Assembly: GCA_043813365.1 (NCBI GenBank)
Contig: JBDRLB010000006.1
Location: 1 to 12,407 of the forward strand
From: Candidatus Micrarchaeota archaeon
Lineage (GTDB): Archaea; Micrarchaeota; Micrarchaeia; Norongarragalinales; SBBD01
Direction of reading: 5' to 3'
DNA length: 12,407 nucleotides
Under the pieces are notes generated by a model, which ran no database searches, had not been told where the DNA came from, and was given only the letters and a program-made list of their open reading frames with translations. Position numbers and translations under genes: made by a program. Shown piece after piece: positions 376 through 9,359 of the stretch; the stretch's first letter is position 1; each line of letters opens with the position of its first letter.

Positions 376-1962
376 ATGAGCCAGAAAATCATTATGCGGC
401 CGCCTGAACTGCCTGAGGAAAAAGAAAGGCAGGAGGAGATCAAGAAAGCTGCATTGTTTTACGGTGAAAGAAAGGCATCCCATTATATTGAAGTAATGAA
501 GCTTGCAATGCAGTATGCAAACGACTGGCACCTCGCCCAAGCTGCTTTATATCATGGCGTCCCATTTTTCCTTAGGAAAAAGGTTTTGCAGGAAGGAAAA
601 GAGCTGAAGAACGAACAAATCAAAGCGGCTTTGACGTCCTTTGGTTTGAAGGGGCCAGTCAGAGACTTGATATTAACGTATGATAAGCTGCCGCGACCAA
701 AGCCGAAGGAGGGCAGGCTTTCTTCTTCTGAAGAAATAAAAGGGCTAAGCACGGTAAAACCTCTTTCGTCCGAACCAAAGGAAATTTCAGAGCTGGACCC
801 CGAATTTCTCTCAAAATTCTACTATCGAGTCGAAGAAGACCCGCGGCTTTACCTTTTACGCACACTGGACCGATTGCATGTTTTAAAATCCAACAAGTAC
901 CCTCGCGAATCATTGGGAATTGCCAGGGCTGTGAGGGAACACTATGCAAAGACTGCGCATTGGCTGAACATGTACGGCCTTGCGAGTGAACTTGAAAGTG
1001 CCGCGTTCAGGACCGAGCATCCATGGATCGCCAAACAGGTCGGATTGCTCATCAAGAAAAAGAAGGAATCAGTTAATATTAAAAACAGGAGAGCTTCCCT
1101 GATGCGCATCGCGAAAAGCTTAAGTTTTTCTTCAAAGGAACCGGTCCAAATCGAGTATAGGATAAAATCCGATGCCAGTGCCTGGAAAAAGATGAAAATC
1201 GATCCTGGTGAATTTGAAAAAATGAATTACAGGGAAAGAAAACGCATGCTAAATAGGCAATTTAAAACCGTCCGAGATGTTATTGCATTCAGGTTAATTG
1301 TGCCCGATGGGTATACTGACGGAAAACCGAACCACGAATTATTAAAAAATGCACTCCTTTCCTCAGATTTGGGATTGAAAGTATCAGCAGATTATTTCCT
1401 CAAGCCCAAGCCAAACCATTACCAGGCGTACCATCTGAAAGCTGAGGATATTGACCTCCAAATACGTACATATGGGAGCCACCAGCATGCGGAATACGGG
1501 GACGCTGGCCACTGGGGATACAAAGGCCACCCGATTTCAGGGTCGCTTGCAGTCCAGTTTGCCAATATTCGCAGTTATTATGATGCTGTGAATAAAGGCG
1601 ACTTGACAGCCAAAAAGTCAACTTTCGAAAGATGGCACGGTGTGGATTTGATGGAAGAAGGGATGATATACCGCGGCAACGAACTTTTTTCTTTCAAGCA
1701 TGTCGGCCCACCGACACCAATAGACCTCGCCCGCACTTCGGATCCTCACCAGTGGATATACCTTAAAACCTGCCTTGTCAAGCCACCTGGATCAAAATCA
1801 TGGAAAAATTTTGCTTTTTCCAAGCGAATACCATTCGGTTCAGAAACAAGGCTATTCTTTGCACCTAGGCAAACGTTAAATTCAAATTGGCTGGGATATG
1901 TTGCAAATGAAACTACGAAGGCAACAATAAGGCTTTTATTGAGGGACGCCGATTCAAAATGA
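376..1962 (+). CDS. Divergent RelA/SpoT homologue (RSH): degenerate HD domain + (p)ppGpp-synthetase-like domain + TGS-like domain, 528 aa
   Basis: Collinear RSH motifs: AALYHGV (cf. AALLHDV), LLRTLDRLH (cf. LIKLADRLHN), YAKTAHWLNMYGLASELESAAFR (cf. YAPLAHRLG...ELEDLSFR), RIKSDASAWKKM (RxKxxxSxxxKM), DVIAFRLIV, DYFLKPKPNHYQAYH (cf. DYIAxPKxNGYQSLH), DLQIRT...HAEYGDAGHWGYK (cf. EIQIRT...AEYGVAAHWxYK), TPIDLA (TGS start, cf. TPIDFA), NWLGYVANETTKATIR (cf. DWLNFVKTSKAKNKIR). Confidence 0.9.
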   Translation: MSQKIIMRPPELPEEKERQEEIKKAALFYGERKASHYIEVMKLAMQYANDWHLAQAALYHGVPFFLRKKVLQEGKELKNEQIKAALTSFGLKGPVRDLILTYDKLPRPKPKEGRLSSSEEIKGLSTVKPLSSEPKEISELDPEFLSKFYYRVEEDPRLYLLRTLDRLHVLKSNKYPRESLGIARAVREHYAKTAHWLNMYGLASELESAAFRTEHPWIAKQVGLLIKKKKESVNIKNRRASLMRIAKSLSFSSKEPVQIEYRIKSDASAWKKMKIDPGEFEKMNYRERKRMLNRQFKTVRDVIAFRLIVPDGYTDGKPNHELLKNALLSSDLGLKVSADYFLKPKPNHYQAYHLKAEDIDLQIRTYGSHQHAEYGDAGHWGYKGHPISGSLAVQFANIRSYYDAVNKGDLTAKKSTFERWHGVDLMEEGMIYRGNELFSFKHVGPPTPIDLARTSDPHQWIYLKTCLVKPPGSKSWKNFAFSKRIPFGSETRLFFAPRQTLNSNWLGYVANETTKATIRLLLRDADSK

Positions 1963-1979: not shown

Positions 1980-4688
1980 ATGTTATCAAAGGATTATCTC
2001 ATAAAGGAATTCGAGAAGGAGTACAAGCAGTACTACGAGGTGGAGCTTTTCAGGAAGGAGGGGTTCCGGAGGTTCAAGTGCAAAACCTGCGGCAAGGCGT
2101 TCTGGAGCATACCAGAAACCGATAACTGCGGCGACTCCTCCCATAATGATTACGATTTCTTCAATGACCCGAAGCCAGTTTCCTCCCACCTCAACTATTC
2201 CCAATTCTGGAAGAAATACGCCTCCTTCTGGAAAAAAAACGGCCACGAGGTTCTGAAGCGTTATCCGGTGATCTGCAGGTGGAGGGATGACCTATTTTTC
2301 ACAATTGCAAGCATCGTTGATTTCCAGCGGCTTGAGAAGGGGAAAGTGGTTTTCGAATACCCCTCGAACCCATTGATGGTCCCCCAAATCTGCCTCCGAT
2401 TTGTTGACATTGCGAATGTGGGTGTTACCGGAAGGCATTTCAGCTGCTTCATGATGGCAGGCCAGCATTCATTTAATGAGAAGAAGGGCAAAGCGGAAGG
2501 GAACGCAAATTTGCAACCCAATTCATCGCCAGCTAAAAATGATCCTTATTGGAAGGACAGGTGCATAGAGCTCAATTTCAAATTCCTAACCGAGGTGCTC
2601 AAAATACCAAAAGGAAAAATCACCTATGGGGAGGATCTGTGGCACATGCCGGATTTCTCCGCATTCGGGCCTTCAATTGAGAGCTTTTCGGGCGGTGTTG
2701 AGCTGGTCAACAGCGTTTTCATGCAATACCGCGCTACTCCGGATGGGAAATTCGAGGAGCTTGACACCAAAGTGATTGATGTGGGTTGGGGATTCGAGCG
2801 GCTCCTTTGGTTCTACAACCGTACACCAACCGCATATGATTCCGTCTTCCCAACTGAAATAGAGTTCATGAAAAAAAGGAGCGGGCTGAATATCGATGCA
2901 AAATTATTCGCATCCTATTCACAGCTCGCTGCCAAGCTGAACATAGAGGAAGTGCACAACTTGAAGGAGGAAAAGGATAAAATTGCGAAGAGTTTGGGGA
3001 TAGGGCTGGAAGAGCTTGAAAGGACCATTGCCCCATTGCAGGCGATTTACGCGATTGCGGACCACTCCAGAACATTGCTGTTCGCGCTGAGTGACGGTGC
3101 ACTGCCTTCAAATTCCGCGGGCGGGTACAATTTGCGGATCCTCCTTCGCCGCGCGTTCGGCTTCATTGACGAGTACAAATTCGATTTTGATGTTTATGAC
3201 ATAATGAAATTGCAGGCAACGGGTTACAAGGGCATATTCCCCGAACTTTCGGAAAATTTTGATGGGATAAGGAAAATTTTGGAAATAGAGCGGGGGAAAT
3301 ACGCGGAGACGAAGGAAAAGGCGATGAAGCTCGCTTCGGAAGTTCTTAGAAAGGGCGAACTGAAGGCGGACAAATTACAGATGCTTTACGAATCCCACGG
3401 CGTTACCCCGGAAATACTTGACAGTGTTGCAAAAGCGCTGAAGATAGAGGCAAGCATCCCGACCGATTTCTACCGCAAGGTCACTGAGAAGCACATTATG
3501 CAGGAGAAGGCGAAAAAGGATCCCCTCCTAGATGACCCGAAATTTCAAAAACTGCAAAAAACACGGCTGGTTTACTACGAAGACCAAAATAAGCTGGAAG
3601 ATACTGCAAAAGTGCTGGCGATTTACGGCAATAAGATTGTGCTGGACCGCACCATCATCTACCCTGAAGGCGGAGGGCAGGTTGCAGATTACGGGTTTAT
3701 CGGGAAAGCTAAAGTGCTGGACGCCCAGAAAATCGACGATGTTGTTCTGCATCACGTGGAGCATCCTCATGAGCTGAAGGAAGGCGAAACGTATGATGTC
3801 AAGGTTGATTACGTGAGGCGCTGGGCCTTGAGGCGACATCATTCAGCAACGCATATCATGAACGCCTCTTGCAAGGAAATACTGGGCAACCATGTCTGGC
3901 AGGCTGGCGCAAAGAAGGAGGATGATGAGGCGCACCTCGACATTACGCATTATGAGAAGCCGACTGCAGAGTAGCTGCGGAAAATCGAGCACATTGCAAA
4001 CAAGCACGTGATGGCGAACCTGAAGGTGAAAATCAATTTTATGGACAGGGGGAAGGCGGAGAAGAAATACGGCTTTCGTTTGTACCAAGGAGGGGGCGCC
4101 ATTGGGAACATCATCCGCGTTGTTGACTATTCGGGAGTGGACGTGGAGGCATGTGGAGGCATGCATTGCGATTACACCTCCCAAGTTGGCATCATAAAAA
4201 TTGTCGGCTGCGAGCAGGTGCAGGATGGGATTGTCCGGATCCGGTACAAGGCGGGGGAACAGGCCTGGAAGTGGATACATATGCGGGAAGAATTGCTCAA
4301 GCACGCGTCAAGTGAACTGAATGTGCAGGAGGAACAGCTTCCGAACACGGTGAAGCGCTTCTTTGACGAGTGGAAAAGCAGGGGGAAGCAGCTTGAGAAG
4401 GCGCATGAGAACCTTGCGGAAGCAACTATTCATAAATTGACGAGGGAGGCAAAGGAGCAGAATAAGCATCTTGTTAAAATGGAGCTCAACTTGATGCCTC
4501 CGCTGCTGGAAAAGGTGGCTCTGGAGTTCTCGAAGCATGAGGGTTATGCGATTCTGCTCTGGAACCCCGATGGTTTTGTAGTAGCTGCTGCAAACAAGGA
4601 TAGCAAGGAGGATGCGCTTGCGCTGCTTAAAGAGAAGGGCGCAAAGGGCGGTGGCAATAGGAATTTTGCTAGGGGGAAGATGGTTTAG
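1980..4688 (+). CDS. alaS: Alanine--tRNA ligase, archaeal type, interrupted by one in-frame TAG at 3972-3974 (902 aa if read through)
   Basis: N-terminal CKTCGKAFW...CGD Zn-ribbon; RWRDDLFFTIASIVDFQ, PQICLRFVDIANVGVTGRH, IDVGWGFERL, YAIADHSRTL, GGYNLRILLRR, LDRTIIYPEGGGQ; editing motifs HSATH (3840-3854) and CGGMH (4152-4166); C-terminal GGGNRNFARG. ORFs 1980..3974 and 4008..4688 are in the same frame, joined by TAG plus 11 sense codons (LRKIEHIANKH). Confidence 0.95.
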
Positions 4689-4942
4689 TACAGCTGTTCC
4701 TTTTTCCTTAAATCTTCATTTTTTTTGACGTTTGCATTCAATGTTGAATCCGCCCTATTTTTCCTTTCCAACAGGGATTTCTCAATATTCATTCTCGTTT
4801 GTGCAGTATCGACCACGGCCGTACCAACCTTCTTGGTGGCTGGGTCATTCGGCGGGTTGACCCTATTTTGATCGGGATGCCTGAGGTGGAATGGGATCAA
4901 TATGGCAGCAGCTAAAACCGCAGCGAATTTTTTCCATCCCAT
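4685..4942 (-). CDS. Small hypothetical protein (85 aa) with signal-peptide/anchor-like N-terminus and charged helical C-terminus
   Basis: ATG at 4942 gives MGWKKFAAVLAAAILIP (basic, then hydrophobic). The track's longer start (5017) overlaps the upstream gene and translates a T-tract. Its TAA overlaps the alaS TAG (TTAG, 4685-4688). Confidence 0.55.
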   Translation of the reverse strand: MGWKKFAAVLAAAILIPFHLRHPDQNRVNPPNDPATKKVGTAVVDTAQTRMNIEKSLLERKNRADSTLNANVKKNEDLRKKEQLY

Positions 4943-4951
4943 AAAATCAGC

Positions 4952-4980
4952 AATAAAAAATAAAAGGAAAAAATAAAAAA
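4952..4980 (-). terminator. Oligo-T tract, probable archaeal intrinsic terminator
   Basis: The minus strand reads TTTTTTATTTTTTCCTTTTATTTTTTATT (24 of 29 nt are T) directly after the TGA of the 4981..5397 gene. Confidence 0.55.
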
Positions 4981-5397
4981 TCAGAGGCCGGCAGGTGCGA
5001 ATGTAAGCATCAGCCATGCGCCTATTATGTACTTGAAGATCCCTCCGACCATGTCTCCCAGAAGGAACCTTTCAGGCAGGTTCATCGAAAGCGCCAACCC
5101 GACTCTTACCGGTATTTGCGCAATGATGCCCAGGAGCGCGAAGAATATATAGTACGTTGAGAAGTCTAAATTCATTCCCGCATACACGATGATGAACATC
5201 ATGAACACGAAGAACGCTTCCACGAACGAATTCAGCACAGAGAGCATCATTACCCGGGAGCTTTCCCTTTTCACGAGCTTTTCGAAGCCCTTCTTTCTGC
5301 CCCATTTTTCCAGCATCGTGCCCGTCCCGAGCCAGCTGAATATAGCGAACCAGATGCCTAACACTACCCACGGTATCAAGAATTCCGGCGAACCCAT
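4981..5397 (-). CDS. Small multi-pass membrane protein (138 aa), DUF1761-like
   Basis: About 4 hydrophobic segments; W..KxxG loop after TM1 and PERFLLGD before the last TM resemble DUF1761. SD-like AGGTGG a few nt upstream of the ATG, with its own BRE/TATA. Confidence 0.75.
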   Translation of the reverse strand: MGSPEFLIPWVVLGIWFAIFSWLGTGTMLEKWGRKKGFEKLVKRESSRVMMLSVLNSFVEAFFVFMMFIIVYAGMNLDFSTYYIFFALLGIIAQIPVRVGLALSMNLPERFLLGDMVGGIFKYIIGAWLMLTFAPAGL

Positions 5398-5510: not shown

Positions 5511-5546
5511 GATTAATTGCTCATTCTTCCAAAGTGGCATCTTTTC

Positions 5547-8500
5547 ATGGATAGCGAATACTCCAAGCTGATTGACAACCTTGCGGACCCTAATTTCAAG
5601 CAGAAGGTTTCCATCCCAAAAGTGCTTGATGTTCTCCGTGACCAGCTCACTGATGTCTCAAAAACCAACCGTTCATTGCATCTGTCGCGCCTCAATATGC
5701 GCCTCCATTTCGACCTTTCCGAACTGTTCAATGAGAACAAGGAGGAGGCGCAAAGGCTCGCGAATAAAATTGAAAACAGGAGACCGTTACGGCTCGTAAA
5801 AGTGATCACTCCGGATGAGGACGACATGGCCGCTTCTTACCGCCTCACCCATTTGCAACGCGAAGCGGATTTCATAGAGAAGGAAACCGGCAATTACGAT
5901 GTTTACATAGGCTATCCTTTCGTGGAGGGAGAATTCGGCGACGGCACCCATTACAAATGCCCCCTGGTATTATTCCCCGCGATCATCGAAAAGGATTACA
6001 AAAAGCTCGAATATACCGCAAAGCCGGATGCGGAACGCGAGCCCATCCTCAATAAAACTTTTATCATCGCATACCAGAAGTTCAACCGCATAAAGTTTGA
6101 CCCGAATTACGATTTTGAAATAGAGGAAGGGAAGGACGGATTCCTTAAAGCTGCAATATCGAAATGCGAGGATCTTGGAATGAAATTTGAGAACAAAACT
6201 GTTCTCGGTAACCATATGCAGCAATACGATGCGAGGAAGGCTACACGGGGAGGGGCGACGAACAGGATAAACATCAAGAATTATGCGATCCTCGGCATGT
6301 TCCCCCAGACTTCCTCCACTGTCCTGTCGGATTATGAGGAGCTCATAAAAGCGCCCCCATCGGATGGCGCAATGTTCGATTTCTTCAACGGCGAGGCTGC
6401 AGATAAAAACGAATGGCTTAGGCCCGAGGACCACGGGAAGAGGGCGTATTTCGTCACGGATGTTGATGGCTCGCAGGAGAAGGCGATGCTTTCCCTGGAG
6501 AAGCTGAAGGGGATTGCCGTGCATGGGCCGCCAGGGACCGGCAAATCGCAATTGATCGTCAATGTGATTGCGGATAATGTGGCAAAGGGGAAGGCCATCC
6601 TGCTTGTTTGTGAAAAACGTGCCGCCTTGGACGTAGTCTACCACCGGCTGGCAGCAATCGGCCTAGGCGACATGGTCGCGTTGGTGCATGATTACAACAA
6701 GGACCGGCACACGATTTTTTCCAAAGTCGCAAAGAACATCGACGATTTCAATAATGCCGAAACGCTTCCTGAAATCACCGTTGATGACAAGGGCATGAAA
6801 TCCGAAGAGCTGCTCTCCCAGCTTGTGGAATACCACCATTCAATAAGCAGGAAACTAAGGAGCGGGACGAGCCTAAGGCACCTGTATTCCGTTGACAAGC
6901 AGCCACTTTTGCGCGTTGAAAGCCTATCCGGATTGGAAAACAGCTTTTCCTTCCTCCAGTTCGTGGATGCGATGGAGAAAATCTCCGACCTGCTGCTTCT
7001 TGTCAGGAAGGACGGGAACGGCGCATTCAAGGCTCTCCAAAATAACAAGCTGGCATCGATTTCCGAGGAAAAAAGCCGGCAGGTGGAGATCCGTTTAAGG
7101 GAGCTGCTCAGGATTTACGAGTCCCTCATCGAGCTTTCAAATGGGGCTGAATTCCAGGCATTGCAGCTGCAAAAGCACCATTCCGCTTACCCCAAATCAA
7201 TGGAGCTCGAGTCCCGGATCAGGAAGCACCCCCACAATTCCAAATCCTTCCTGAAATTCACCAATTCCGAATGGCGCAAAGCGCAGAAGTACCTTGAAGC
7301 CGTGCGTGAAAACAATAGGGAAAGCAAGCTGCCCTTTGAATACCTGCTTAGGGAATTGAACGGCGAAAGCATCAAATTCACCTCGAAAACGTTCATTTCA
7401 GTAGGGAAGCTGGCGGAATACAACAAGCTGATGCAATCCTTTGAGAACGAGGCTGCCGAGCTGCAGAGCGAGCTTGCATATGGGGAATCGGACAACACAA
7501 TTTCCTCCGAACTTGTCTCCCTTGCCTCGTTTTGCTCGGACGATTGCCAGCACCTTCTACTCCAATTGCAGAATTCCTTAAAGGCAAGGGAAAAGGGGAA
7601 GGTATTTGCGCGCCAGGTATCCGACCTTTCAGAGGAAGAGCGCACCCTCTTCGATATTGCGCAATCGGTGCTTTCGCGCGAGAAGAACCTGCAGAAAACG
7701 ATCGACATCCTAAACCACTCCTATTACTACAAGCAGATACAGCAGGCGGAAAACGAGCTTCCGGTGCTGAAGAAGCTTGACCGCACTACTTACGGGAATT
7801 ACCGGAAGGAACTGCAGTCACTGCTGAACAAGCGCAAATTGAAAAGCAGGCAGGAAGTCAGGAGGAGATGGCATGAGAACCTCTCCAACCAAAGGTACTC
7901 CAACCTGAAGGAAATGAAGTTCCAGGCGGAAAAGACGAAGCACCCGTGGAGCATCAGGAAAATGATGCGCGAGTTTGCAGACAAGGGGATTATGGATGTT
8001 TTCCCGGTGTGGCTTTGCTCGCCTGAAACCGTCTCCGCCATTTTCCCGCTCAAGAAAGGGATGTTCGAAACGGTTGTTTTCGACGAGGCTTCCCAATGCA
8101 CGCTTGAACATGCAATCCCTGCGCTCTACCGTTCCAAATCCGTTGCAGTTGCAGGCGATGAGAAGCAGCTCCCTCCTTTTGATTTATTCTCCTCCCATCT
8201 GGACATTGAGAATGCCGAGGAGGACGATTCGCCTTCAGCAAACGAATTGGTGGAGGTTGCCGGCGTCAAATCGTTCTTGCAGCTGGCAAAAAGGAGATAT
8301 CCCGAACTCCTCCTTAACTGGCACTATCGCTCAAAACGTGAGGAATTGATCGCCTTCTCCAATTTCGCCTTCTACTCCGGCAAAATTCAGACAACCACTC
8401 CTCCTGAAATGCACAAAAAAGGAACTGCAATTGAATGGATAAAGGTTAATGGTTTATGGGACAAGAGGAGGAACCGTGCGGAGGCAGAAAAGGCAGTCGA

Positions 8501-9359
8501 ACTCATCGCATCAATAATTTCAAAGCCCCATCCGCCTTCAATCGGAGTAGTCACTTTCAATTCCGCCCAGCGCGACCTTATTGAAAATTTGCTTGAGAAA
8601 AAAGCGCTCTCGGATTACAAATTTTACCAGCACTACAAGCGCGAACAGGAGCGCGTTGAGAATGAGGAGCTCCAGTCCCTTTTCGTGAAGAACATCGAGA
8701 ATGTGCAGGGGGATGAAAGGGACATGATAATTTTCAGCATTGGGTATGCTCCATCTGTTGAGGATGGAAGGGTGCTCACTCAATTCGGCACACTCAGCAT
8801 GGAAGGCGGGGAAAACCGGCTGAATGTCGCGATTACCCGCGCCCGGGAAAAAGTGATTGTGGTCAGCTCCATTGATCCCCTGCAGCTCAAAATAACCGAC
8901 GAAAGCAACATCGGCGGAAAATACCTCCGGAAATACCTCGAATATGCCAAGGCAGTCTCAGACAACAATGGGGATGAAATTTCCGCAATACTGAAAAGCG
9001 TTGGCGGGGATGCATATGAAAAATCAATGCTCTCCCAGCCATCGGCTTCGGATGCGCTTTCGGATGAGCTCTTCATTCAGCTCCAGAAAGCCGGCCTTGA
9101 AGTCAAGAAGGAGGTGGGCTACAGCAACTACGCGCTTGATCTCGCAATAATTGACAAATCCGACCAGCACCGGTTCGCTCTAGGAATCGAAATCGACAAG
9201 CACAATTATGGCGGGCTGCTCGATGCAAAGGAAAGGGATGTCTACCGCCAGAACCTGCTGGAGAGCAGGGGCTGGAAGCTTTTCCGCGTGAGCTCAAGGG
9301 ATTGGTGGAGCGATCCGGAGGAGATTGTAAGGGCAATAAAGCAGGAGTTAAAGGACTGA
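5547..9359 (+). CDS. DUF4011-like + UPF1-like SF1 helicase (AAA_11/AAA_12) + C-terminal Vsr-like/MTES_1575-type endonuclease fusion (Hhe-like putative defence protein), 1270 aa
   Basis: N-terminal LTDVSKTNRSL...EKETGNYDVYIGYPF...CPLVLFP (DUF4011-like); Walker A GPPGTGKS (6525-6548); VCEKRAALDVV; CSPETVS; Walker B FDEASQ (DEASQ at 8082-8096); GDEKQLPP; HYRS; VQGDERD; RLNVAITRAR; C-terminal YALDLAI...GIEID...ERDVYRQNLLESRGWKLFRVSSRDW. Confidence 0.9.
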   Translation: MDSEYSKLIDNLADPNFKQKVSIPKVLDVLRDQLTDVSKTNRSLHLSRLNMRLHFDLSELFNENKEEAQRLANKIENRRPLRLVKVITPDEDDMAASYRLTHLQREADFIEKETGNYDVYIGYPFVEGEFGDGTHYKCPLVLFPAIIEKDYKKLEYTAKPDAEREPILNKTFIIAYQKFNRIKFDPNYDFEIEEGKDGFLKAAISKCEDLGMKFENKTVLGNHMQQYDARKATRGGATNRINIKNYAILGMFPQTSSTVLSDYEELIKAPPSDGAMFDFFNGEAADKNEWLRPEDHGKRAYFVTDVDGSQEKAMLSLEKLKGIAVHGPPGTGKSQLIVNVIADNVAKGKAILLVCEKRAALDVVYHRLAAIGLGDMVALVHDYNKDRHTIFSKVAKNIDDFNNAETLPEITVDDKGMKSEELLSQLVEYHHSISRKLRSGTSLRHLYSVDKQPLLRVESLSGLENSFSFLQFVDAMEKISDLLLLVRKDGNGAFKALQNNKLASISEEKSRQVEIRLRELLRIYESLIELSNGAEFQALQLQKHHSAYPKSMELESRIRKHPHNSKSFLKFTNSEWRKAQKYLEAVRENNRESKLPFEYLLRELNGESIKFTSKTFISVGKLAEYNKLMQSFENEAAELQSELAYGESDNTISSELVSLASFCSDDCQHLLLQLQNSLKAREKGKVFARQVSDLSEEERTLFDIAQSVLSREKNLQKTIDILNHSYYYKQIQQAENELPVLKKLDRTTYGNYRKELQSLLNKRKLKSRQEVRRRWHENLSNQRYSNLKEMKFQAEKTKHPWSIRKMMREFADKGIMDVFPVWLCSPETVSAIFPLKKGMFETVVFDEASQCTLEHAIPALYRSKSVAVAGDEKQLPPFDLFSSHLDIENAEEDDSPSANELVEVAGVKSFLQLAKRRYPELLLNWHYRSKREELIAFSNFAFYSGKIQTTTPPEMHKKGTAIEWIKVNGLWDKRRNRAEAEKAVELIASIISKPHPPSIGVVTFNSAQRDLIENLLEKKALSDYKFYQHYKREQERVENEELQSLFVKNIENVQGDERDMIIFSIGYAPSVEDGRVLTQFGTLSMEGGENRLNVAITRAREKVIVVSSIDPLQLKITDESNIGGKYLRKYLEYAKAVSDNNGDEISAILKSVGGDAYEKSMLSQPSASDALSDELFIQLQKAGLEVKKEVGYSNYALDLAIIDKSDQHRFALGIEIDKHNYGGLLDAKERDVYRQNLLESRGWKLFRVSSRDWWSDPEEIVRAIKQELKD

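Follow-up and report, generated by a model that had tools for sequence, protein, structure and literature searches.

The closest described counterpart of the gene considered here, the alaS of a Candidatus Micrarchaeota archaeon, is the archaeal alanine--tRNA ligase (AlaRS; NCBIfam TIGR03683), of which the Archaeoglobus fulgidus structure has been solved (3wqy, 2ztg). The two are colinear over their full length, have the same domain order and have the HxxxH and CxxxH motifs in common. The A. fulgidus enzyme has a Glu where this alaS has an in-frame TAG, at codon 665.

Split AlaRS is known in Nanoarchaeum equitans, as the first-pass annotation of this DNA correctly stated, and passages of PMC10036535 place the split in the tRNA-recognition domain rather than in the editing domain. 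The likeness is that of a DPANN archaeon with the AlaRS frame in two pieces. In N. equitans the pieces are encoded by separate genes, whereas here they are adjacent and in frame, the break falls in the editing core, some 200 residues further along, no start signal is recognisable and the break is not common to any relative. A mini-AlaRS of Tupanvirus, which has no editing domain and no C-Ala, is described in the same passages as charging tRNAAla and supporting growth. It ends cleanly after the tRNA-recognition domain, whereas the 664-residue product here would keep the beta-barrel and half of the editing core, and the coding sequence 3' of the stop is still intact.

Sections of Belinky et al. 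2021 (PMC7918605) describe conserved prokaryotic genes as commonly carrying in-frame stops; a stop is counted there only if at least two genomes share its position, which is meant to exclude sequencing errors. The alaS stop is likewise a single nonsense codon in a conserved gene, a TAG opposite codons of the CAG/GAG type, but it occurs in one genome only. Pyrrolysine or amber decoding in methanogens also involves an in-frame UAG in a functional gene; in contrast, neither PylS nor, among the readable anticodons, a tRNA-CUA was found in this genome, and TAG is a common terminator in it.

The alaS gene and its in-frame TAG

The window, that is, the whole 12,407-nucleotide stretch of DNA that was analysed, is one entire contig (C6) of a metagenome-assembled genome (MAG) of 1.34 Mb in 78 contigs, with 88.6% completeness and 3% contamination. 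The nearest relatives of this MAG are Candidatus Micrarchaeota MAGs from groundwater. Its archaeal alaS (1980-4688, forward strand) has 902 codons when read through the one internal TAG, which stands in the context CCG ACT GCA GAG TAG CTG CGG (Table 1). In the ORF list the gene appears as an ORF of 664 aa (1980..3974) followed in the same frame by one of 226 aa (4008..4688, with a GTG start and an ATG at 4011).

With X placed at the stop, the read-through product scores 873.8 bits against TIGR03683 (cut-off 744.7), covering profile positions 3-884 of 902, and it aligns with A. fulgidus chain 3wqy_A over 884 residues (residues 17-900, E 1.1e-168). In whole-protein score, colinear coverage and editing zinc motifs, the read-through alaS is that of an archaeal AlaRS; the one uninterrupted reading frame of such genes is broken in this MAG by the TAG. 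The first-pass annotation had described a lone in-frame amber codon that splits alaS between HxxxH and CxxxH, and the sequence, the ORFs and the read-through translation all agree with that description. Both sides of the TAG clearly belong to one gene, and the arrangement is no chance pattern of ORFs.

The gene is single-copy in this MAG. The search for a second alaS or an alaX, proposed in the first-pass annotation, returned no second alaS, and the only further match is one free AlaX-M-like gene on another contig (C48:1202-1852), which is intact and carries both HxxxH and CxxxH. This gene scores 254 bits against NF040865, below the cut-off of 300, with 217 residues of a 249-residue frame tested. 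An AlaX-like match is present in 21 of 39 relatives. By this count AlaX often accompanies an intact alaS, and the gene on C48 is no special back-up.

Table 1. Features of the interrupted alaS in the window, and one-base frameshifts located on other contigs of the same MAG
Feature	Location	Strand	Basis or remark
alaS part 5' of the stop, 664 codons: class II catalytic domain, tRNA-recognition domain, beta-barrel and first portion of the editing domain with HxxxH	1980..3971	+	ORF 1980..3974; Pfam tRNA-synt_2c residues 78-611, E 4.7e-88
HxxxH (H-S-A-T-H), first half of the editing-site zinc motif	3840..3854	+	Sequence and translation; HxxxH kept in 19/19 aligned relatives and in the free AlaX
In-frame TAG, alaS codon 665	3972..3974	+	Sequence; E/Q/D/K/M in relatives
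alaS part 3' of the stop, 237 codons: remaining editing core with CxxxH and C-terminal (C-Ala-like) domain	3975..4685	+	Pfam tRNA_SAD residues 712-754; 3wqy_A alignment to residue 900
In-frame GTG and ATG, sole candidate restart codons past the stop	4008..4013	+	ORF 4008..4688
CxxxH (C-G-G-M-H), second half of the editing-site zinc motif	4152..4166	+	Sequence and translation
Normal terminator of alaS, also TAG	4686..4688	+	Translation
MCM helicase frameshift	C29 near 11888		Only MCM over cut-off; Pfam match ends at the shift
Radical-SAM Elp3-like protein frameshift	C70:12681		
M17 aminopeptidase frameshift	C51:4156		
OPT transporter frameshift	C29:43918		
BacA frameshift	C28:2046		

Relatives, the downstream part and the restart codons

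Sister genomes had been named as a check on the TAG, and alaS proves uninterrupted in 33 of the 39 relatives, whose matches span residue 665 with no internal stop; a stop at codon 665 occurs in none of these 33. One relative has alaS fragments only, which leave the site uncovered, and the remaining five, which belong to families f8 and f9 within the same order, are without an archaeal-type alaS of about 900 residues. Among the matches listed from the protein database, all 120 relatives are continuous proteins (best identity 76%). No same-species copy was found, the best identity being 66% in metagenome contigs, 70% in genome contigs and 76% in proteins.

The column opposite the TAG holds E in nine, Q in seven, and D, K and M in one each of 19 aligned relatives, and the codons at position 665 in four congeners are GAG, CAG, GAA and GAA. 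The TAG is a single substitution away from the GAG and the CAG, the codons of two of these four. The expectation that the residue is normally E/Q-like and one substitution from GAG or CAG is thereby confirmed (16 of 19 are E or Q).

The 237 codons 3' of the TAG contain no further stop and no frameshift, and their CxxxH is intact. Dividing the identity of the C-part to 15 outgroups by that of the N-part gives 0.783 in this MAG and 0.767-0.817 in the four congeners. By these measures the downstream part is no more diverged than that of the congeners and shows no decay, and the gene is not an old pseudogene. The 11 codons between the TAG and the GTG (3975-4007), which had been said to look still conserved, are indeed conserved like coding sequence.

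The start signal of this MAG is weak and SD-like, with G enriched at -11 to -6 (572 long ORFs); GGTG is found in 92 of the 572 upstream regions, compared with 37 in shuffles. An SD-like element of this kind precedes the true alaS start, while in the 16 bases before 4008, CATTGCAAACAAGCAC, neither GGTG nor a G-rich SD-like element is present. Measured against the genome's own start signal, the earlier remark that no clear SD precedes the GTG-ATG at 4008/4011 holds. The TAG cuts inside the minimal editing core, in the stretch that aligns with the 157-residue AlaX-S (1v4p), and not at a domain border. A split of the N. equitans type is not what is found at this site, which has no start signal, lies outside the tRNA-recognition domain and is not conserved as a break in relatives.

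Search for decoding of TAG in the MAG

The stops of 708 stop-to-stop ORFs of at least 250 codons are TGA in 344, TAA in 218 and TAG in 146 cases. In-frame pairs of long ORFs across a single stop number 58 for TGA, 43 for TAA and 26 for TAG, in proportion to stop usage. Under genome-wide reassignment TAG would be a rare terminator and frequent inside conserved genes, which is not the pattern found here. Since the terminator of alaS itself is a TAG, the codon must still terminate in this organism.

In this 88.6%-complete MAG the best match to the C-terminal PylS model reaches 18.3 bits, the cut-off being 178.15. The tRNA set comprises 25 model matches, 18 of them over the cut-off, with anticodons read by ARAGORN in 16 and by eye in seven. 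No CUA is present among the 23 readable anticodons, in a census that is incomplete, several genes having T-loop introns (at least six tRNA genes of this MAG). Two model matches are without a read anticodon, one of which had earlier been called Val-CAC. A low-threshold ARAGORN run for tRNA-CUA was discarded as noise, having given at least 606 calls; no 'Pyl' call in it overlaps a tRNA-model match. The single aRF1 carries the NIKS and YxCxxxF motifs usual for this factor. The checks on recoding proposed in the first-pass annotation thus gave no PylS, no CUA among the readable anticodons, a usual aRF1 and no excess of in-frame TAG.

The context of the stop is not special either, the base after it being C, which follows 29% of ordinary TAG terminators. 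The TAG lies in the loop of a 6-bp hairpin, which is not significant (fold z -1.89, with 7 of 200 shuffles as good) and whose sequence is not common to the congeners. Among the best 12 of 2,039 literature matches on stop-codon recoding and readthrough, Micrarchaeota are not mentioned.

Single-base lesions of the MAG and the probable origin of the TAG

Two tests were applied to the rest of the MAG. In one, every in-frame stop flanked on each side by 150 or more open codons was taken (127 stops), and both sides were scanned separately against Pfam. Matches on both sides were obtained for 34 of the 127 pairs; in 33 of these the two sides are separate neighbouring genes, each complete, and alaS is the sole case of a single gene. 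This test is blind to stops outside Pfam domains, and it missed a stop on contig C44. The other test was a reciprocal tblastn of stop-to-stop ORFs against the best-assembled congener (G002; 7 contigs, 1,266,413 bases), in which the ORFs of G002 yielded 744 conserved ORFs without overlap, with 247,442 aligned columns in this MAG. Clean single in-frame stops with good identity on either side are exactly two in these 744, that of alaS and one at C44:25323, a TAG opposite a GAG (Glu) of G002, which lies in one of 16 matches here to a family of about 500 residues with a C-terminal PEP-utilizers mobile domain. In this MAG the two clean in-frame stops are thus both TAGs opposite a Glu of G002. In the opposite direction, with 771 ORFs, G002 has a single clean stop, a TGA aligned with Cys.

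Several other candidates were rejected. Further tblastn stops, located at the 5' margin of a stop-to-stop frame or in multi-stop, junk-like text, were set aside by judgement. A relaxed filter gives six stops in this MAG, four of them in Arg/Gly-rich, low-identity matches with two to six stops each, and from their sequence these four matches were judged to be probable open non-coding frames or upstream extensions and not genes. A short L15e (profile positions 1-138 of 191) followed by TGA was considered as a broken gene, but the post-stop sequence is unrelated, and it was taken as a naturally short form.

Six frameshift-like junctions are found in this MAG against G002, five of which proved on verification to be clean switches of frame by one base, at short runs of bases; the frameshifted genes (Table 1) were named by a Pfam run on the G002 orthologues. 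G002 has three frameshift-like junctions, one of which merely mirrors the MCM lesion. Lesions are thus fewer in the better-assembled G002 (one stop and three junctions). Public read-derived contigs (Logan) supply eight pieces from four runs (groundwater and biofilm, three studies) with a word depth of 2-3.6 and no differences; they cover 3300-3542 and 3991-4700, so that none spans 3972 and the piece nearest to it starts at 3991.

The TAG in alaS is probably a single-base consensus error of the draft MAG, or a minor allele picked by the assembler, and the dominant population would carry an archaeal alaS that is ordinary and uninterrupted, its codon 665 being GAG or CAG. The first-pass annotation had ranked a sequencing or assembly error highest, a ranking supported by the intact relatives, the lack of downstream decay and the other single-base lesions of the MAG. 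We infer that these lesions, the TAG included, are errors rather than biology, because it is not credible that a cell lives with its sole MCM frameshifted and its sole AlaRS truncated, while a draft with about eight single-base lesions among 744 conserved genes is. On most sequencing platforms homopolymer indels are commoner than substitution errors, which arise by a different process, so that the frameshifts support an error at the TAG only indirectly. That both in-frame TAGs stand opposite Glu is a small coincidence that an error model does not predict; it may reflect chance, a G-to-T error mode or biology, and two events prove nothing. Alternatively, the lesions may be true alleles in a population that is decaying or heterogeneous.

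A real and recent nonsense allele of the dominant genotype, producing a 664-residue AlaRS with half an editing core and no C-terminal domain, is unlikely. Such an enzyme would keep its aminoacylation and tRNA-recognition domains; the free AlaX-M would remove mischarged Ser- or Gly-tRNAAla in trans, and a little full-length enzyme might arise from occasional readthrough by a near-cognate tRNA. The presence of the TAG in the assembly, the intact AlaX-M-like gene on C48 and the second in-frame TAG of the MAG are in keeping with this, as are the Tupanvirus mini-AlaRS, which works in vivo without editing domain and C-Ala according to passages of PMC10036535, and the report in sections of PMC7918605 that bacteria widely carry in-frame stops whose genes evolve under purifying selection. 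It is opposed by the fact that this alaS is the only copy, by the break inside the minimal editing core, owing to which the truncated domain would probably misfold, and by the occurrence of AlaX in many relatives, which makes it no special compensation. The 237 downstream codons, with no extra divergence, stop or frameshift, fit only a very recent event, and the frameshifted sole MCM of the same MAG, which is not credible as biology, points to errors. That the TAG is real in the dominant genotype and cuts the AlaRS in its editing domain, the enzyme being either editing-less and leaning on AlaX-M or made of two reassembling chains, is in our view decidedly unlikely.

Termination at the TAG with a restart at GTG 4008 or ATG 4011 would give chains of 664 and 226 residues, which would have to reassemble non-covalently with a working editing site. 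The in-frame GTG-ATG lies 12-13 codons past the stop, and split genes are known in DPANN archaea, the N. equitans AlaRS working as alpha + beta in the accounts excerpted from PMC11392972 and PMC10036535. A two-chain enzyme here is nevertheless very improbable, as neither GGTG nor another G-rich stretch stands at -11 to -6 before 4008/4011, the 11 intervening codons are conserved as coding, none of the 33 site-spanning relatives is split there, and the cut falls between the halves of the zinc motif within the editing core rather than between domains. Programmed decoding of the TAG, by pyrrolysine, by a dedicated amber suppressor tRNA or by context readthrough that inserts Gln or Glu, is barely conceivable. 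The natural residue (E/Q) could be supplied by near-cognate reading of UAG, the +4 base is C, the TAG sits in a hairpin loop and TAG is the codon at each of the two clean in-frame stops of the MAG. Against this, the PylS match is far below its cut-off, the 23 anticodons read include no CUA, the aRF1 has NIKS and YxCxxxF, and TAG ends 146 of 708 long ORFs and alaS itself; the +4 C is ordinary, the hairpin is matched by shuffles and not common to congeners, and no relative has a stop at the site.

The alaS TAG is probably best filed as an assembly artefact, and most likely no new way of making or reading AlaRS is involved. The MAG is a species representative, and carries about eight single-base lesions in conserved genes, its sole MCM and sole alaS included. 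Because of such lesions annotation pipelines will call pseudogenes or fragments in it, and completeness estimates and metabolic inferences should allow for them. Among the quality-control steps of translation, AlaRS editing is one of the most strongly conserved. Were the TAG real, a cell, whether free-living or symbiotic, in which cis-editing is lost or the editing core is split would be a useful natural experiment, and it would offer a natural case of AlaRS proofreading moved wholly to a trans factor in a cellular organism.

Genes adjoining alaS

Immediately upstream of alaS in this archaeon lies a gene for a RelA/SpoT-family protein of 528 residues. Residues 127-524 of this protein align with TIGR00691 at 85 bits, far below the cut-off of that model, and a PADLOC search of the protein gave no match. 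Downstream, beyond two small ORFs, is encoded an SF1 helicase that resembles the anti-phage candidates PDC-S37 (2.2e-167) and Hhe (1.1e-84) as well as the NCBIfam entry ProA, with all three matches falling under the equivalog cut-offs.

Features in the window and on other contigs (C numbers) of the same MAG; anticodon identities of the tRNA genes were read by eye
Feature	Location	Strand	Description
RelA/SpoT-family protein	window 376-1962	+	Pfam RelA_SpoT (1.2e-12)
Two small ORFs	window 4685-5017, 4981-5397	opposite to helicase and alaS	no family; between alaS and helicase
SF1 helicase, 1280 residues	window 5517-9359	+	AAA_11/AAA_12; C-terminal MTES_1575 endonuclease domain
MCM (sole copy)	C29 near 11888		clean one-base frameshift
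Elp3-like radical-SAM protein	C70:12681		clean one-base frameshift
M17 peptidase	C51:4156		clean one-base frameshift
OPT transporter	C29:43918		clean one-base frameshift
BacA	C28:2046		clean one-base frameshift
Sixth frameshift	C40:9317-9422		candidate only
tRNA Asn-GTT	C31:1363-1576		broken after T-loop
tRNA Arg-TCT	C62:22916-23086		broken after T-loop
tRNA Ala-GGC	C47:15759-15864	-	broken after T-loop
tRNA Met-CAT	C59:14048-14257	-	broken after T-loop
tRNA Arg-GCG	C40:37776-37950		broken after T-loop
tRNA Val-GAC	C47:15941-16095		broken after T-loop

Interrupted reading frames in the MAG and its congener

Outside the window, five conserved genes of the MAG each carry a frameshift at a short base run, and these five look like consensus errors. 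In the best-assembled congener, G002, the MCM gene (C1:75442-80259, minus strand) is a 1606-codon frame that includes intein and LAGLIDADG domains (Pfam Intein_splicing, LAGLIDADG_3).

Besides the one in alaS, the MAG has another clean in-frame TAG at C44:25323 (locus L198:1840-1842), also outside the window, in a gene of ∼492 residues with a PEP-utilizers mobile domain at its C-terminal end. The codon opposite the TAG is GAG (Glu) in the G002 orthologue and AAG in the relative G004. Four relatives (G002, G003, G004 and G016) each have an uninterrupted frame in their closest homologue. A family of proteins of ∼500 residues with this C-terminal domain, and with an N-terminal part lacking a Pfam family, is strongly expanded in the MAG (16 matches) and its relatives (up to 31 in G004), frequently in tandem arrays (e.g. 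C45:7062-18110 of the MAG).

G002 itself contains an in-frame TGA (C5:201951, minus strand), facing a Cys of the orthologue in the MAG (ORF C55:1223-1966) and flanked by 65-80% identity on either side, which might reflect a nonsense error or a pseudogene, or mark a Sec-like site.

Forms of alaS in relatives

Among the 39 relatives searched, five lack the 900-residue archaeal-type alaS: G016 of family f8, and G017, G026, G034 and G038 of family f9, both families belonging to the same order. The first four of these encode ORFs of ∼590-630 residues with weak matches to the AlaRS catalytic, recognition and editing regions, which may represent AlaRS of a short type that lacks the C-terminal domain. 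In G003, the alaS match (C69:30888-33768) comes in pieces, with the last (residues 751-902) in a separate open frame of 173 aa and the rest in a frame of 859 aa, suggesting a frameshift near the editing/C-terminal junction in that MAG.

tRNA genes interrupted after the T-loop

Six tRNA genes of the alaS-bearing MAG, all outside the window, end abruptly just past the T-loop. For each, the expected 3' piece follows further along the same strand, at a distance of ∼40-140 bases, and matches the T-stem plus acceptor complement with 0-1 mismatch. The gaps are long introns, and their place within the T-loop is non-canonical. ARAGORN overlooks all six genes, and tRNA counts in this lineage are therefore underestimates.
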